From positions 85,308 to 149,307 of the forward strand of contig JAQBUT010000004.1 of the NCBI GenBank assembly GCA_027623195.1: 64,000 nt of DNA, in the 5' to 3' direction. The first letter of the stretch is position 1. Every line of letters begins with the position of its first letter. The notes under the pieces were generated by a model. The model ran no database searches and had not been told where the DNA came from. It saw only the letters and a list, made by a program, of their open reading frames with translations. Positions 57,936 to 63,883 of the stretch are shown here, piece after piece. The DNA is from Chloroflexota bacterium (GTDB lineage Bacteria > Chloroflexota > Dehalococcoidia > Lucifugimonadales > JADFKI01). A program made the translations under genes and the position numbers.

Positions 57936-58226
57936 CTAGTTAGCGGCCTTGCTTAGCTCCGCCCCTGCTGTGAATCCCACACGCTTGTGCGCTGGGACTG
58001 TTATCAAATTGCCAGCCTGACCGCCCCTAATGGGACGTACCTTCCTGGCCTTCACCTGACGTACCTCGAAGGATCCAAATCCAGTTAGAACTACTCTGTC
58101 ACCAGACGACAAGGCATCCTGGATGCTGTCCAGTACGGCGTTTAAAGACGCCTCGCCCTGTGCCTTCGAACCCTTCATCTTCGACGCGACACGTCCTGCC
58201 ATGTCACTCTTTCGTAGGGTTGCCAT
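57936..58226 (-). CDS. hup: HU-family DNA-binding protein
   Basis: K.D....VA, L..GD.V.L.GFGSFEV, VPA....F.AG..L. Confidence 0.9.
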   Translation of the reverse strand: MATLRKSDMAGRVASKMKGSKAQGEASLNAVLDSIQDALSSGDRVVLTGFGSFEVRQVKARKVRPIRGGQAGNLITVPAHKRVGFTAGAELSKAAN

Positions 58227-58485: not shown

Positions 58486-58849
58486 GGGGACGCGTGGTTT
58501 CGACAGGGGATTAACTTCGAAGGATTGCAGGTCGAGGCGCCATCATCACCTCGTAAAAAGGTGGCAAAAAAATTAATTGGCAACTCACAAGAGTACGCCC
58601 TAGCCGCCTAATTTAGGTGACTACATCCATGGTTTCTTCTCCTCGAGGGAGGCTAATGGGTGATATAACATCGAGGTGCTGCCCGATTTACGCCGATATT
58701 GAGGGCCTAAGACTTATCGGCTGTGGGTTTGCAGTCGCTCCCCGCTGGAAGGTGCTGCCGACTCAAGATTAAAAATTCCGGCTAAGCCTGTAGTATATCC
58801 TCGTAGTCGTTTTCTGGACGGGGAGTTCGACCCTCCCCCGTCTCCACCA
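58486..58849 (+). ncRNA. ssrA: tmRNA; tag peptide GNSQEYALAA (58579-58611)
   Basis: 5' GGGGACG..TTTCGAC; 3' T-arm GGGGAGTTCGACCCTCCCC and CGTCTCCACCA acceptor end; internal ORF ending YALAA-stop. Confidence 0.96.
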
Positions 58850-60313
58850 ACTCCAAACTTGGAGTCGGTCTGTTTCATCCGGAGAGTGCAGCGTAAGTGC
58901 TGCGCTCTCCACCCTGGCCATAGCCTTTTCGAGCAACGTGCTAAAGGCAGCGGCTGGCCGGATGGCCCCTATAAGCCTGCTGTCTATATCTACGTACACA
59001 CGCTCAATAAGCGGGCTGATTAGCTTACGCCTCTCTTCAGGCGTCGCCTCGTTCCATAGGTCCTTTACGCTTGCGAACAGATGTGCTGCTTCTTCCATTG
59101 TAGGCAATTCGACATTTTCGGTCAATCGTAGGCCGGCATCAATCTCGGTGAGTTTCGCTTTATATTCAGCATCGCTAATGCCCCCAGCCATATAGGCCCG
59201 GGACACCCTCCGTTTTCGCTCCTGCAACTCCTTAGGGTCAGGCCCTTTATGGTCGGCCACAGCTAGCTGTGCCATCTCTTCTCGCCACTCCGGACGGAGT
59301 TCTATCGAAGTCAGAATGTCTTGAATCTGTTGATCGACCTTCGGCGCCATCATGGAGCGCCCGTTAGTGACGCACTCGCGGGAGTGGCGTTCCCGGTACA
59401 TCGCCCCGCCATAGCGGTGCCGGTCGGACTGGATTCCCTTTCCGCAGTTGCCGCAGGAGATCATCCCTTGGAGCAGACCCTTGGGACCCTGGACCGTGCG
59501 TACAATGGTCCGACGTTTCCTGCGGCTCTGGACTTGTTCGTATAGCTCTTCGGAGATGATGGCCTCATGTTGTCCCAGGTACTCATCTTCATTGTATATA
59601 ACCTTACCTAGGTAGAACCGACAGTTCAGCATGTCCTTCACCGCGTGGCTGGTAAAGATTCCACCCTGGCGGGTCTTTAGGCCCTGGGCATTGAGCCAGT
59701 TGGCCAGCGAACCGGTAGACTCCCCGCCGGCTCGGCGACGGAAGACCTCAAGTAACGCTTTTGCTTCTATTTCCTCGGCCTGAGGAACTCCCCCCGGTTC
59801 CACAATCCGGTAACCAAAGGGAATCGGCCCTATAGGGAGCCCGATGGTGGCTCGATACCGCTGGGCCTTGGAAACGTGGACGGCGAGTTGATCGGAAAAG
59901 AACTCGGCCACGCCGCCTATCATTGTGAGCATCAGCTTGCCGCTCGGGATAGTGAAATCGAAATCTTCCATGACGCTTGCGAAGCCTACTTGGGCGTCAC
60001 CCAGCGACTGTAGGGCTTGGCGCTGTACACCGACGTTCCTAGACCACCTGTCAATGGTGTGGACAACCACTATGTCGAACAGCCCTGCCTTGGCATCCGT
60101 CAGCAGTGCCATGAGCTTGGGACGTCGGTCTATTCGTTCGGTGTGAGCACTTTTCCCCTCTTCGACATAGACACCTACGAGATCATACCCACGCCGCTTA
60201 CACCAGCGCTCGATGTCAGCCTTCTGGGCATCGATGGAGTACTTCTCCACCTGGGAGGGGTCGGACACCCTTATGTAAGCGACAACTCGGTTAGCTGAGG
60301 CTTTCTTCTTCAT
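58769..60313 (-). CDS. Large serine recombinase (ssrA-targeting integrase, DsiB-like)
   Basis: AYIRVS catalytic Ser, DR.SR, PFGY recombinase domain, CGNCG zinc ribbon, coiled coil; 3' end overlaps the tmRNA antisense. Confidence 0.92.
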   Translation of the reverse strand: MKKKASANRVVAYIRVSDPSQVEKYSIDAQKADIERWCKRRGYDLVGVYVEEGKSAHTERIDRRPKLMALLTDAKAGLFDIVVVHTIDRWSRNVGVQRQALQSLGDAQVGFASVMEDFDFTIPSGKLMLTMIGGVAEFFSDQLAVHVSKAQRYRATIGLPIGPIPFGYRIVEPGGVPQAEEIEAKALLEVFRRRAGGESTGSLANWLNAQGLKTRQGGIFTSHAVKDMLNCRFYLGKVIYNEDEYLGQHEAIISEELYEQVQSRRKRRTIVRTVQGPKGLLQGMISCGNCGKGIQSDRHRYGGAMYRERHSRECVTNGRSMMAPKVDQQIQDILTSIELRPEWREEMAQLAVADHKGPDPKELQERKRRVSRAYMAGGISDAEYKAKLTEIDAGLRLTENVELPTMEEAAHLFASVKDLWNEATPEERRKLISPLIERVYVDIDSRLIGAIRPAAAFSTLLEKAMARVESAALTLHSPDETDRLQVWSWWRRGRVELPVQKTTTRIYYRLSRNF

Positions 60314-60539
60314 GCGCTTGCTTCCTTCGTATCAGGATCGCCCTGCCTACCTCGGCCCAGACCTTGCATAGCTGCTCGATATCCGCCTCGGCCGGTTCGG
60401 TGGTGGCGTCACCACATATTGGCTCACCCGTTGGGGAATTAGCAAGACCCTCTTGAGCTATCTGCTCTCTGGGAAGATGCTCGTTGCCTTTCCGGTTGTT
60501 TGGCGTATTGACCTTACCATCACCCTGACTGAAGTACAT
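60291..60539 (-). CDS. Small hypothetical protein overlapping the recombinase start (possible directionality factor or regulator)
   Basis: 82 aa; C-terminal amphipathic helix LCKVWAEVGRAILIRR; overlaps the recombinase by 23 nt. Confidence 0.5.
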   Translation of the reverse strand: MYFSQGDGKVNTPNNRKGNEHLPREQIAQEGLANSPTGEPICGDATTEPAEADIEQLCKVWAEVGRAILIRRKQAHEEESLS

Positions 60540-60545
60540 ACTTCA

Positions 60546-60602
60546 AGTCTAAGGAAATGCCCGGTGCAAGAAGTGGTGGTTTTTCGGTGCATTAACGGTG
60601 CA
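60546..60602 (-). promoter_or_regulatory. Phased direct-repeat operator plus -10 box upstream of the small ORF/recombinase
   Basis: Minus strand TGCACCG x3 (60596, 60585, 60562) plus a degenerate copy (60574), spaced 11/11/12 bp; TAGACT 10 nt after the last repeat and 6 nt before the ATG. Confidence 0.6.
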
Positions 60603-60613
60603 GGGGAAAATGA

Positions 60614-62335
60614 CTAAGGGAAAGGGATATTCAGCCGGTAAATGCCTCTTCCATCGGCTCGCACCACCAGACGGTTCCATGCGGTGGAGTCGCGGAAGAC
60701 CTGAGCCAAGTTCTGACTACCGATGTCCAAGGTTTCCAGGATGTACGCCTGGCTCAGGGCAGCGCCACCGGCAATATGCTGGTTGGCGAGCAGTTCCACT
60801 ACGCGGGACTGGTTGGTAGTCAGGTCGAACCTCTCGTCCCCCAACCAGACCTCTCGATAGTCGGCGTTGTGGCGGAAAAAATCCGTCTGCGACCCAGCCA
60901 CTACCGCGTAGGAGCCAGCAATCAGCCTGAGGAGGCACCCAGGCGGTAAAGCCTGTCTGGCCAGTTCACTCCTCGCTAGGGCAATCTGATCCTCGATTAC
61001 CTTTATGATCGTGCTGGCGTGGCGCTTGACCATGCCAGTCAAACTGGCAGCTACGGTCCCGGCATCGGGATCAGAGGGATCAATGCATTCAAATAGCTCG
61101 GCGTACCGGTGAAACAACCCGGTCGCATCCAGAGGTTCTACTTCGGAGGCGAACCTGGCGTACGACAAGGCCATGGTCCGGTCCTTCGGAGAGGGCAGTT
61201 CCTGGCGGAATATGTCCACCCGGTATCGTTCCGGAGGGTCGTATTCCTCCATTTCGGCGGCGATGGTGGCAAAACGCCGGTCAATACACTGAGAGCAAAC
61301 CCCACAGTGGGATTGCATCCGGGTCTGGTAGCGCCCATGGGAGCAGGAGTTGGTTTCCTCAACCAAAGCTACCGAACCGGTATCCTGCAACACTTTCAAA
61401 GTCTCGGGTCTGGTCCGATTCCACAGTGGGTTGCTGACCTTGGGGCCGTTGGCGAACATCAGCTGGATGAAACGGTTAAACAGGCGTAGGAATTTGGGGT
61501 GGGTCGAACGGGTGGCCCGGGCCCCGATCAGCTGTCCGTTGATTGGCAAGTTCAGGCTCACCACTCCATTATCAGCCAGACAGACATCGGTGATCGCCAG
61601 GCGGTCCGCGATGACCGCTCCGAGACTAGCGAACAAGAACGCTCTGGTTCGTTGGCTGTAATCGCGGGCATCTGAGCCGGTACGGTGGATGGCGACGCTC
61701 ATTAGAGGAAATGACCAGTCTTCTCGAAACCGTTCTCGGATCAGCCTGGCCAGACTATGTTGACGGTTTCGGATGTTGAAAGCTGGCGAGTGGCTGACCA
61801 GCAGCGGACGCTTCCCCTGCTGAACCGCCGCCTCCAGCACTGCGCAGAGACTGTCCAGGCCCCCTGAAAAGAGGTAAACCCCGTCAGGGTTGCCTAATAC
61901 CGAGGTGGGGTCTAATTCCAGGTGCAACTGGCTCTGCTCGGCCATCATCTCGGTAAAGTGGAAGTCCCAGGTGTCGTCGGAAGCGAAGTTCAGTGTTTCA
62001 GCCAGTGACTCTTTTACCTGCTCTCGGTTCCAGAATTCCAGGTCACTGACTGGCAGGTGCAGGATGAAGTGGCGTTTCCATGAATCGCCATGTGCGTCGG
62101 CCTCGCCACCCCGGCTGACGCTCTGGTCGGCAGCGTAGACGTAGGAGGCGAGCCGCACCAGATCCGCAGCCCGATGTTCCACGGAGGCCAGCAATGCGCT
62201 GGATGGGCTTTGGATTCCCAGGTTCAGATTGGCTTCCGGCCCCCGGTGGTTTAGAGACTGGCGAAGAAGCACCGCTGATTCCTGGGGAGCCGGCGGGATG
62301 GTGGCCCCGTCGCAGCCGACCAGGAACTGCTTCAC
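60614..62335 (-). CDS. qatC: QatC-like QueC-family (PP-loop, Zn) enzyme with a C-terminal winged-helix-like domain
   Basis: DL..LA..VYAAD..VSR, LFSGGLDS PP-loop, SQRTRAFLF, NG..SLN.P, TRSTHP, SCS..HCGVCSQC..RR; extra ~85-aa C-terminal domain ending RGIYRLNI. Confidence 0.8.
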   Translation of the reverse strand: MKQFLVGCDGATIPPAPQESAVLLRQSLNHRGPEANLNLGIQSPSSALLASVEHRAADLVRLASYVYAADQSVSRGGEADAHGDSWKRHFILHLPVSDLEFWNREQVKESLAETLNFASDDTWDFHFTEMMAEQSQLHLELDPTSVLGNPDGVYLFSGGLDSLCAVLEAAVQQGKRPLLVSHSPAFNIRNRQHSLARLIRERFREDWSFPLMSVAIHRTGSDARDYSQRTRAFLFASLGAVIADRLAITDVCLADNGVVSLNLPINGQLIGARATRSTHPKFLRLFNRFIQLMFANGPKVSNPLWNRTRPETLKVLQDTGSVALVEETNSCSHGRYQTRMQSHCGVCSQCIDRRFATIAAEMEEYDPPERYRVDIFRQELPSPKDRTMALSYARFASEVEPLDATGLFHRYAELFECIDPSDPDAGTVAASLTGMVKRHASTIIKVIEDQIALARSELARQALPPGCLLRLIAGSYAVVAGSQTDFFRHNADYREVWLGDERFDLTTNQSRVVELLANQHIAGGAALSQAYILETLDIGSQNLAQVFRDSTAWNRLVVRADGRGIYRLNIPFP

Positions 62336-63117
62336 GCCGCCGCCATTTGCTGCCTGAGTTCGGTGCGTAGCTTGCGCAGCGCGTAGGCCATAAACCGCTG
62401 GGTTTCATCCCGGTTCACCGCCCCCTGGGACTCCCAGTTGTGGCGGGAGTACCAGCCTCCGGCGAAATCCTCGACGATTCGGGATGACTGGCGGGCATGC
62501 AGGTCAAGGGCCTCCAAGAATTCGTGACTTTGGTTCAAGTTGGATAGTCCCGCTGATGCGCCCAAGTGGTTGGACAGTTCCCGGTCTACGTAGGAATGAA
62601 GTAGCCGGGCGAAGAAGTCGCCGAAGAACCGGTGGGCCAGTCTGCCAAACTGGACCTGGGTGGAGTAAGTCCGAAAGGCGTTCTGAAGATCATCAAGGGA
62701 ACTGCCAAAGAGGCTGGGGCCTTGCTGTGCTACTGTGTCGGTCAGCGCGGTGCGCAATGCCAGGGAGCCCAGCTCGGCGAAATCTCCTCCTGAGGGACTC
62801 GTGGCAAGCTCCTCCCTCACCCGGTCAGTTACCTGGGCGATTAGCTGTAGGGAAGAGGTGTTGGAGTTGACGTTGATGCCCAGACGAGCCAGGTCGGCCA
62901 CAAAGTCCGGGCCGCGGGCTGCCCAGGCGATACGGGTCAACAACCAGAAGCTGTAGCCTAGACCCTCATCATTGGCCAGTTGACGCAGGCGGCCTTCTGC
63001 GGCGAAGACAACCGCTCCTGCCAGAGATGAAGGATCGAGGGCAGGAGCATCCAGGAGGTTGATTACCTCGGTCCAACGACGGGTCTTGGGTAGGCGTCCC
63101 AGACGCAAGTGTCCCAT
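62332..63117 (-). CDS. Hypothetical alpha-helical protein, translationally coupled partner of the QatC-like gene (QatB position)
   Basis: 261 aa; starts MGHLRLGRLPKTRRW; stop overlaps the next start (GTGA). Confidence 0.8.
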   Translation of the reverse strand: MGHLRLGRLPKTRRWTEVINLLDAPALDPSSLAGAVVFAAEGRLRQLANDEGLGYSFWLLTRIAWAARGPDFVADLARLGINVNSNTSSLQLIAQVTDRVREELATSPSGGDFAELGSLALRTALTDTVAQQGPSLFGSSLDDLQNAFRTYSTQVQFGRLAHRFFGDFFARLLHSYVDRELSNHLGASAGLSNLNQSHEFLEALDLHARQSSRIVEDFAGGWYSRHNWESQGAVNRDETQRFMAYALRKLRTELRQQMAAA

Positions 63118-63508
63118 GCTTGCTACCCCCTAATCAGTCGGCAATGCTACTAGCAAAACCGAAAGGCCGCGAGAGGTTGTTCTCCGAATGGCCCTAAGGA
63201 TAGAAGGTTTTAGCCCAGATCAACCACCTGCGCCGGAAGAGCGGCAGCGGCAGCCCCCAGCGGCTGAAGAAGGAGGAGCAGGCCCTGCAGGTGGAACAGC
63301 AAAAACTATTTTAGCATCGATCGTTCATATAAGCGATTTTTTCTTAAAAGCTCCGGCAGTGGCGGCCGTCTCAAGTCTGCAAGATTATTGCATGGGTTTC
63401 CCGAGACGTAAACCACCTTAGGGTGCCAACCAAGTGCTAAATGACGAAGGTTGTTCTCAAATGACCCACGGTATGTACAACCAGGGTTCCATTAATGGGA
63501 TAACGCCC

Positions 63509-63883
63509 ATGAATACACTGAATCTTACCCGAGCCTATATGTCATGCGCCGTTGCCCTGCTGCTGCTGTGCGGCTGCGCCCAACTGGGCATATATCGGCT
63601 GGAATTGCTGGCGTTGCCTCAGGAAGGCCCGGCTCCCCTGACCGTTTCCTTTGCCGCCAGCATTACTGGTGGTCTGGACATCAGCCCTGAGCTTTATTGC
63701 CAGCAGCAGACCTGGGACTTTGGCGACGGGCGTCGGGTGGGTGTTTTCGGTCTTTGTCAGTCCTTGAGACCCGGGAGGAAGATAGACCGTCAATTCGGGC
63801 AGTATTACCCTCAATCTGTCATGCTGGATGACCAGCCGTGCCTTTTACATCCAGGGCGGGGAATCCTCCCCGCCTGGCCTTGA
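63509..63883 (+). pseudogene. PKD-domain lipoprotein, probably truncated
   Basis: Lipobox-like LLLCGC; P..G.APLTVSF and WDFGDG PKD motifs; sequence looks non-homologous afterwards. Confidence 0.45.

Follow-up and report, generated by a model that had tools for sequence, protein, structure and literature searches.

A QatBC-like gene pair with a fused winged helix ahead of an integrase gene on a Chloroflexota ssrA island: a possible switch for a mobile element

The QatB-QatC core of the anti-phage system QatABCD is the closest described relative of the gene pair reported here. The QatABCD papers cited here leave open the reaction of QatC, the trigger, and how QatB modification stops phage. QatB was seen to bear a low-level NDG peptide in vivo, whereas in vitro there was no activity (PMC13639016). 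In the QatC cluster of PMC13329287, roughly one member in three has qatA or qatD nearby. The remainder is left undescribed there, and Supplementary Table S2 of that paper may hold members of the branch described below. We analysed a 64,000-nucleotide stretch (the window) of a Dehalococcoidia genome of the Chloroflexota (assembly GCA_027623195.1, contig JAQBUT010000004.1, positions 85,308 to 149,307 of the forward strand), in which a QatB-like partner and a QatC-like enzyme with a C-terminal winged helix lie on an ssrA island, ahead of a serine integrase gene. A QatC carrying a DNA-binding domain, together with matching repeats before the integrase, suggests that the pair is probably a switch for a mobile element rather than a simple weapon. 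For a switch in which QatBC acts as the sensor and gates an activator, fused to it, of the recombination genes of the island, we put the probability at roughly 0.5.

The partner gene (62332..63117, reverse strand, 261 aa, all-helical, start M-G-H) precedes the enzyme gene (60614..62335, reverse strand, 573 aa, GTG start), and the two share the 4-base overlap GTGA. Both reading frames are real, as the first-pass annotation had drawn them. That annotation had also recognised the enzyme as a PP-loop/Zn protein of the QueC family with a QatC-type N-terminal domain, which is borne out by a match to PADLOC QatC (E 1.7e-61) and by the alignment of model residues 2-475 (predicted local distance difference test, pLDDT, 88) to the QatC chain 9y02_B with Z 34.6 and a root-mean-square deviation (r.m.s.d.) of 3.0 for 404/427 residues. 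The score against the QatC equivalog NF041925 is 220.7 bits, below its cut-off of 280. The enzyme has an SGGLDS PP-loop and the Zn cysteines C331/344/347/350. Compared with the QatC motif list of PMC13329287 and PMC13279940 (D-x4-R...WxR, DxWxxxF, RxRxxxF, ExG, HP, Px4TK, Zn cysteines, Thr pair), it keeps D70/R75/W86/R88, D121/W123/F127, R229/R231, H279/P280, and P303...T308-R309, with D255-N-G placing Asp where the ExG motif has Glu. T275/S277 occupy the positions of QatC T278/T280, where QueC and Cap9 have Tyr/Asp. Canonical QueC features (about 220 aa, YxQxH, VPxRN, YPDC, a que operon) do not describe this protein, which is 573 aa long, lacks the motifs, and scores 29.8 bits against the 150.3 of TIGR00364. 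A separate canonical queC with a queE-like neighbour lies on another contig (C24) of the host genome; hence, 7-carboxy-7-deazaguanine (CDG) is probably available in the host. The enzyme is thus of the QatC type with an added OmpR/PhoB-type winged helix. Comparison of both genes and the winged helix with two homologous loci gave identities of 0.75-0.86 at second and 0.36-0.45 at third codon positions, a pattern typical of purifying selection, which indicates that selection acts on the protein products of both genes, the C-terminal domain included.

The partner had been described as a non-QatB Met-Gly protein, a description overturned by its structure. The two best Foldseek matches of its model (pLDDT 85) are QatB (E 0.036 and 0.065), and structural comparison gave Z 13.7 to 9y02_A and 13.2 to 9y01_A, the next match being 5.4. 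The alignment spans the whole-length fold (204/211 residues, r.m.s.d. 3.8) at 10% identity. The partner is therefore a remote QatB homologue and the pair a QatBC variant with no new substrate class; from the earlier suggestion of a possibly undescribed minimal system, the stand-alone pair survives and the new kind of substrate does not. By sequence, the partner has no match in Pfam, NCBIfam, PADLOC, PHROGs, or the PDB, including the QatB models (NF041924, PADLOC), and nine distant partners likewise match no QatB sequence model, so that a detection rule requiring QatB would not call this branch. A wide structure search with the partner listed no QatB chain and gave weak helical matches (best Z 5.9). 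Partner residue 8 aligns to QatB residue 64, leaving about 7 residues ahead of the core versus about 63; the N-terminus reads M-G-H-x-R, not MGTS, and the disordered QatB tail of 30-90 residues is lost. This loss fits the loss of qatD, because QatB residues 2-46 are the QatD-binding segment (PMC13639016). Gly2 is present in 112/121 close partner sequences as called, and is invariant in the 107 that were aligned after 14 had been dropped for missing or extended N-termini or near-identity. It is also kept in 133/134 distant representatives reaching the N-terminus (16/150 do not reach it), so the conservation check that had been proposed for Gly2 comes out positive.

A complex of the two proteins was predicted with a score of 0.90 in three runs, at least 91% of contacts being common and the partner pLDDT at least 84, compared with 0.00 for the best control. 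The mark for this score was reached by 116/157 solved pairs and 2/215 mismatched pairs; since a similar QatBC complex has already been solved, the score may reflect likeness more than binding. The predicted interface comprises partner residues 2-11 and includes enzyme residues 75-87, 259-277, and 347-349, thereby placing the partner's N-terminus at the active-site side, as the annotation's Gly2 hypothesis would have it.

The pair stands alone. Among the 71 loci whose flank is 300 nt or longer, 70 have a QatC start no more than 150 nt from the partner end. Neither qatA (KAP NTPase) nor qatD (TatD) is adjacent to the pair or present in the window, in agreement with the annotation, and the genome itself (87% complete) has no match to the QatA or QatB hidden Markov models (HMMs) and one sub-cut-off TatD on another contig. 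Likewise, none of the 122 scanned neighbour open reading frames (ORFs) of 33 loci (of 159 candidates, with many flanks short) matches a KAP NTPase or TatD. The partner profile matched 1,480 clusters at 50% identity and found the partner in 8/401 genomes of the phylum, in one plasmid of the plasmid collection, and in no member of the phage collection. The related loci in the contig scan are Dehalococcoidia, a range that is undersampled because the first scan was queried with a single protein and found two loci. We found no published description of QatC fusions, of the stand-alone branch, or of the integrase link, in a search that left most subscription journals and supplements outside its reach, and term searches of the available text of PMC13376578 and PMC13639016 gave no passage on such fusions or such a link.

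The extra C-terminal domain had been likened to a winged helix, and the structural alignment agrees. Enzyme residues 483-572 match the DNA-binding domain of CovR with Z 8.0 and r.m.s.d. 2.8 for 83/96 residues, followed by GlnR (7.6), VicR (7.4), PmrA (7.4), and OmpR (6.0) at 11-21% identity. More than ten OmpR/PhoB domains recur at Z 6-8, moderate values that are expected for a small domain within a long model, and other winged helices score lower (6.0-6.4). The domain (residues 483-571; 60623..60889, reverse strand) has the N-terminal beta-sheet, the three helices, and the C-terminal hairpin of the fold, with pLDDT about 87-96 over residues 491-570; linker residues 476-484 are flexible and of low confidence in the model. 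Pfam Trans_reg_C did not match the domain. The fold supports DNA binding or transcription as the predicted output, as the annotation had also supposed.

This C-terminal position is a swappable slot, which is new here. Among 164 full QatC cores, the tails are of class A (the window winged helix) in 79, D in 37, B in 22, C in 13, F in 4, TIR in 1 (PF13676, E 7e-11), and other or truncated in 8; D tails are about 217 aa long, B about 150, C about 184, and F about 155. Thus, 54/164 carry predicted DNA-binding tails other than the window winged helix. Class A compared with D and with C by profile gave nothing (probabilities of 0.5% and 0.1%), A versus F gave 6% (E 0.006), and class F has weak matches to CarR (E 0.24) and TcpP (E 0.79); because these comparisons do not tie C, D, and F to A, the three classes are called DNA-binding by position, motif, and appearance. 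The B tail is a PD-(D/E)xK nuclease with invariant E, PD, and ExK, matching DpnII-MboI families at E 5.7e-6 to 0.08 and aligning to the catalytic D298/E309/K311 of EcbAgaN (E 0.068), and the B tail of locus L108 matches PADLOC Aga_Helical-REase (E 2.6e-6). We counted 13 changes of tail along a FastTree phylogeny built from 137 cores, where 7 is the minimum and shuffles give 55 or more. One C tail falls inside a group of A tails (support of 1.0, 81% core identity), and elsewhere an A tail and a C tail form a pair, also with support of 1.0; some of these swaps come from single assemblies and could be chimeric.

The class-A domain occurs in 2/401 genomes, both times at QatC-type loci, and seven short proteins with this domain that were considered as stand-alone class-A regulators turned out to be QatC fragments. 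The class-D domain occurs in 13/401 genomes, mostly on non-QatC proteins including MalT-like TPR regulators, a count that includes the unpublished genomes G272 and G173, which were left out of further use. In an atlas search, the class-A and class-D domains resembled unnamed protein clusters of 92-105 aa and 174-265 aa, respectively. The class-D domain has no Pfam model and ends MalT-like TPR proteins and proteins of about 290 aa (L116, L121, L123, L124, L125). At L116, L124, and L125, a TCACGCC motif follows it, ahead of unrelated genes. Class D is possibly an undescribed output domain of regulators with its own site.

Directly behind the QatC stop codon, TGCACCG occurs three times, at 60596-60602, 60585-60591, and 60562-60568, with spacings of 11 and 23. 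The hexamer TAGACT comes next (60551-60546), and the ATG of a small ORF lies 6 nt beyond it. Repeats and hexamer form a candidate target promoter (60546..60613, reverse strand) by repeat and matrix analysis. PhoB-type activators use tandem repeats at one helical turn in place of the -35 box, and the pho-box layout is similar. The candidate promoter has no -35 and was not listed in a sigma-70 scan. Over 13 class-A loci, the lag-11 self-match after the stop was 8.0/11 against 5.9 +/- 0.27 for shuffles (reached by 0/300), and it was 6.5 for C, 5.65 for D, 5.0 for F, and 5.3 for ten nuclease-tail loci. A TAnnnT hexamer lies at a fixed offset in 12/13 class-A loci, with ATG or GTG 6 nt later in 8/12. 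With a matrix built without the window, the site there scores 33.1 bits, and no other position among the 5.99 million of the genome exceeds 15.4; 9/12 class-A sites reach at least 28 in leave-one-out scoring, and sites of the other tail classes reach at most 1.5. Class D is followed by TGTCGC/GTGAA-type repeats (3.5 words per locus versus 0.25-0.31) and class F by GTCACA (2.25 versus at most 0.08), words that were picked by eye in the same sequences. A post-stop repeat and -10-like site that changes with the tail type and is absent after nuclease tails is also new here; the annotation had overlooked both this candidate site and the exchangeable tail. As a side observation, two viral contigs (L134 and L135, about 117 kb), found with the exact repeat pattern, carry four or five TTCACCGCAAA copies just before an ORF, with the QatBC pair absent.

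Given the fold and the covariation of motif and tail, the fused winged helix probably binds the repeat site, and we predict, with somewhat less assurance, that it activates the small ORF and the integrase. The small ORF (60291..60539, reverse strand, 82 aa), which had no family match in library scans, overlaps the integrase start by 23 nt. Its C-terminal motif is seen again ahead of each of the six nearest homologues of the integrase, indicating that the small ORF is part of the integrase module. The simplest role for a small gene expressed together with an integrase is that of a directionality factor, with excision as the outcome, which makes this ORF a candidate directionality or excision factor.

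The winged helix might instead be an input that targets phage or plasmid DNA, or a repressor or autoregulator, the repeats at the integrase promoter then binding another protein. QatA, which this locus lacks, is a DNA-binding protein (PMC13279940) whose place a fused domain of that kind could take, and the direction of regulation cannot be read from the sequence. We regard this explanation as improbable, because the motif tracks the tail type and not the integrase (of the other 27 integrase-homologue loci, one reaches 11.4 bits and the rest stay below 3), lies downstream of the pair and outside its promoter region, and is the sole strong match in the genome. Moreover, in two sequencing runs of one study (X2 and X4), a single contig covers 60403-63213 with 26 differences from the window, of which 17 of those listed fall within 60437-60498, inside the small ORF, and it diverges past both ends; with the small-ORF allele differing and pair and motif held on one contig, the two travel together.

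The genomic surroundings differ by tail type as well. In 9/9 tallied class-A loci (a tenth, L034, was left out of this tally), the downstream sequence holds a same-strand serine integrase match that begins after 189-500 nt, and a tyrosine recombinase lies upstream in 8/9. A tRNA or tmRNA (transfer-messenger RNA) gene follows the integrase in seven loci (L002, L009, L013, L016, L025, L068, L082). In a context tally with its own query set, an integrase or primase lies within 1 kb in 11/15 class-D loci, a primase in 2/4 class-F loci, and an upstream tyrosine recombinase in 3/3 class-C loci, and 0/7 nuclease-tail loci have such a recombination or primase gene within 7 kb. The neighbourhoods of five of these seven hold Ppl-like, BREX-like, type I or Eco57I-type restriction, or AIPR genes. 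Winged-helix versions thus occupy the regulator slot of integrative elements and nuclease versions sit among defence genes, a division that is new here.

One could also suppose that the module reports host metabolism (the CDG/preQ0 pool or another carboxylate) and not infection, tuning the mobility of the element to the condition of the host, with no anti-phage role. The canonical queC and its queE-like neighbour in the host, and the closer tie of winged-helix versions to integrases than to defence genes, would suit this idea. We find it very doubtful, since the nuclease-tail sisters lie beside Ppl-like, BREX-like, and type I restriction genes, their nuclease resembles the abortive-infection DNase of long-B Argonaute systems, and every characterised relative is anti-phage.

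Several observations on related loci stand beside these tallies. A conserved tyrosine recombinase of about 310 aa (L003:4775-5698 and homologues) precedes the pair on its own strand, with a gap that is often 77-130 nt, so that elements hold both a tyrosine and a serine recombinase; in some loci, cargo (GmrSD, NfeD/flotillin, insertion sequences) lies between it and the pair. The nuclease-tail pair of L108, in the complete 1.5-Mb genome G021, lies immediately upstream of a Ppl-like PHP-ATPase within a canonical ssrA island and near an ORF that by eye is reductive-dehalogenase-like. Decayed copies are listed at L082, L114, and L002: at L082:5690-6536, the QatC core is missing and the partner, the motif, and a remnant of the winged helix persist, and L002 has QatC in three pieces; in G398, a broken pair lies ahead of the integrase. 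A further locus, L164:1146-3433 (G507), has the same layout of tyrosine recombinase, two genes, motif, small ORF, and serine integrase, its two genes encoding proteins of 386 and 382 aa with no Pfam or PADLOC match, the second of which ends in a class-D domain with a D-type motif. This pair, putatively a second sensor, occupies the same slot and is unrelated to QatBC. ORFs that look by eye like helix-turn-helix proteins fill this slot in L137 and L140, and L165, reached via the integrase and not the partner, has a divergent QatBC-winged helix with its own repeat (7/8 at lag 11) and hexamer.

Taken together, a possible mechanism would begin with a 1:1 complex of tail-less QatB and QatC, with Gly2 of QatB placed in the QatC active site after removal of Met. 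At the expense of ATP, QatC might then join the Gly2 amine to a small molecule with a carboxylate, either CDG or something akin to it, as proposed for QatBC, and the state of the complex would control the fused winged helix. The latter would bind the tandem repeats behind its own gene in place of a -35 element and switch on a leaderless transcript of the small ORF and the serine integrase, leading to recombination of the island, most likely excision. An infecting phage or an incoming helper element would probably be the trigger. The same core might drive a nuclease or TIR domain in the sister systems.

Gating by QatBC chemistry is the weakest step. It is supported by the nuclease and TIR tails, which on the same core would need gating, and by the sensor-like partners of other kinds found in the same slot. 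Several points weigh against it and against the switch as a whole. QatC chemistry is still without reconstitution in vitro (PMC13279940, PMC13639016), and no winged-helix residue is listed in the predicted interface, leaving no structural hint of how modification would reach the winged helix. QatBC defends without any fused domain, so the core may act independently of it (PMC13279940). L034 has a class-A tail with no motif and no serine integrase in its 1.8-kb flank, 3/12 class-A sites score poorly in leave-one-out (5.0, 6.0, and -7.1), class-C tails (4 loci) lack a downstream motif, and related loci share ancestry, so that conservation of the motif is not independent.

Two independent functions might therefore share one chain, with QatBC as an anti-phage core and the winged helix as the element's ungated activator, fused because the cassette landed ahead of the activator; minimal QatBC systems in P. 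aeruginosa and E. coli would be its precedent. QatBC protects against lambda in the absence of A and D (PMC13279940), unrelated proteins such as MalT-like TPR regulators also bear class-D tails, with a similar post-stop motif in three of the loci read, and the low-confidence linker and the absence of a winged-helix contact in the complex agree with such independence. Repeated fusion and swapping along the tree, the need of nuclease and TIR fusions for gating against self-killing, and the restriction of the class-A winged helix to QatC-type loci among 401 genomes (2/401) speak against it, and we consider it rather unlikely, if the most serious competitor to a gated switch.

The remaining features of the window place this putative switch within an ssrA island, as the annotation had proposed. 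The small ORF leads into a large serine recombinase (58769..60313, reverse strand, 514 aa, Resolvase and Recombinase domains; CcrB-like below cut-off), whose 3' end runs into the tmRNA gene ssrA (58486..58849, forward strand), the 3' end of the latter being the likely attachment site. An HU-like protein (by eye; 57936-58226), divergent from the tmRNA gene, belongs to the ordinary host flank. At the other side, an ORF at 63434-63883 (forward strand), whose start by eye resembles that of a lipoprotein and which holds a PKD-like stretch and has no family match, is probably truncated cargo close to the contig end. The contig (C11) ends where the window ends, 0.9 kb upstream of the partner, so that the far side of the island is out of view; a contig continuing the island was searched for and not found. 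The tmRNA 3' end (58820-58850) has further exact copies in this genome, one of 28 nt at C11:14716-14743, others of 26 and 22 nt on C13, and others of 18-21 nt on C63, which may be island ends, scars of tandem islands, or a tRNA 3' end. In the sequencing runs, the contigs that cover the integrase (58937-60271) are shorter and of lower depth than the contigs for the pair and for the adjoining chromosome. The pair is followed there by a related but different small-ORF/integrase allele. The window may be a minority allele or a mosaic at the junction of pair and integrase.

More generally, we tentatively suggest that QatBC might be a sensor switch of general use whose output module can be exchanged, being a nuclease or TIR domain in defence clusters and a transcription activator in a widespread family of elements integrating at tRNA or tmRNA genes, where glycine modification would turn on excision at phage arrival. 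If true, protein-nucleobase conjugation would serve as a transcriptional signal, and a defence core would have been repurposed as the inducer of a mobile element. Should gating be confirmed, anti-phage sensing would be linked to the mobilisation of genomic islands in Chloroflexota and other phyla. The branch is large, and natural QatC fusions offer directly readable outputs, a promoter or killing by a nuclease, and thereby a selectable readout for the trigger and the small-molecule substrate.

In summary, the pair resembles the QatB-QatC core of QatABCD (9y01/9y02, 9zee/9zef, 9vlk/9vll) in its B-then-C order, both full-length folds, Gly2, PP-loop, Zn site, QatC motifs, the hydroxyl pair replacing Tyr/Asp, and the loop 259-277 predicted to lie on the partner. 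It would work like QatBC yet falls outside QatABCD: qatA and qatD are not adjacent, the partner is about 10% identical to QatB and missed by the QatB HMMs, the N-terminus is not MGTS, the tail is short, and QatC has a swappable extra domain at a fixed place ahead of the integrase. Type IV CBASS Cap9-CdnD likewise combines a QueC-family enzyme with a Gly2 partner, and the QueC core aligns to 9nto_B with Z 13.4, whereas the window partner has the QatB fold and not that of a CD-NTase, and the enzyme has QatC extensions and lacks the Tyr/Asp pair that binds CDG. OmpR/PhoB activators share the beta-sheet with winged helix and the direct repeats of about 11 bp upstream of a -10-like hexamer; the window protein differs in having no receiver domain, its N-terminal input being the QatC enzyme. 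The invariant PD and ExK of the sister nuclease tails match EcbAgaN, the bAgaN nuclease of long-B Argonaute (PMC10620215), by weak sequence similarity; unlike bAgaN, this nuclease is fused to QatC, and the window itself is not concerned. Finally, the Dehalococcoides ssrA islands with the DsiB integrase (PMC3146451) have the same reverse-strand serine integrase with its 3' end overlapping the ssrA end, but over the 5 kb in view here, dsiA-recF-parB-mom is replaced by the small ORF, the repeat promoter, and the QatBC pair with its winged helix.

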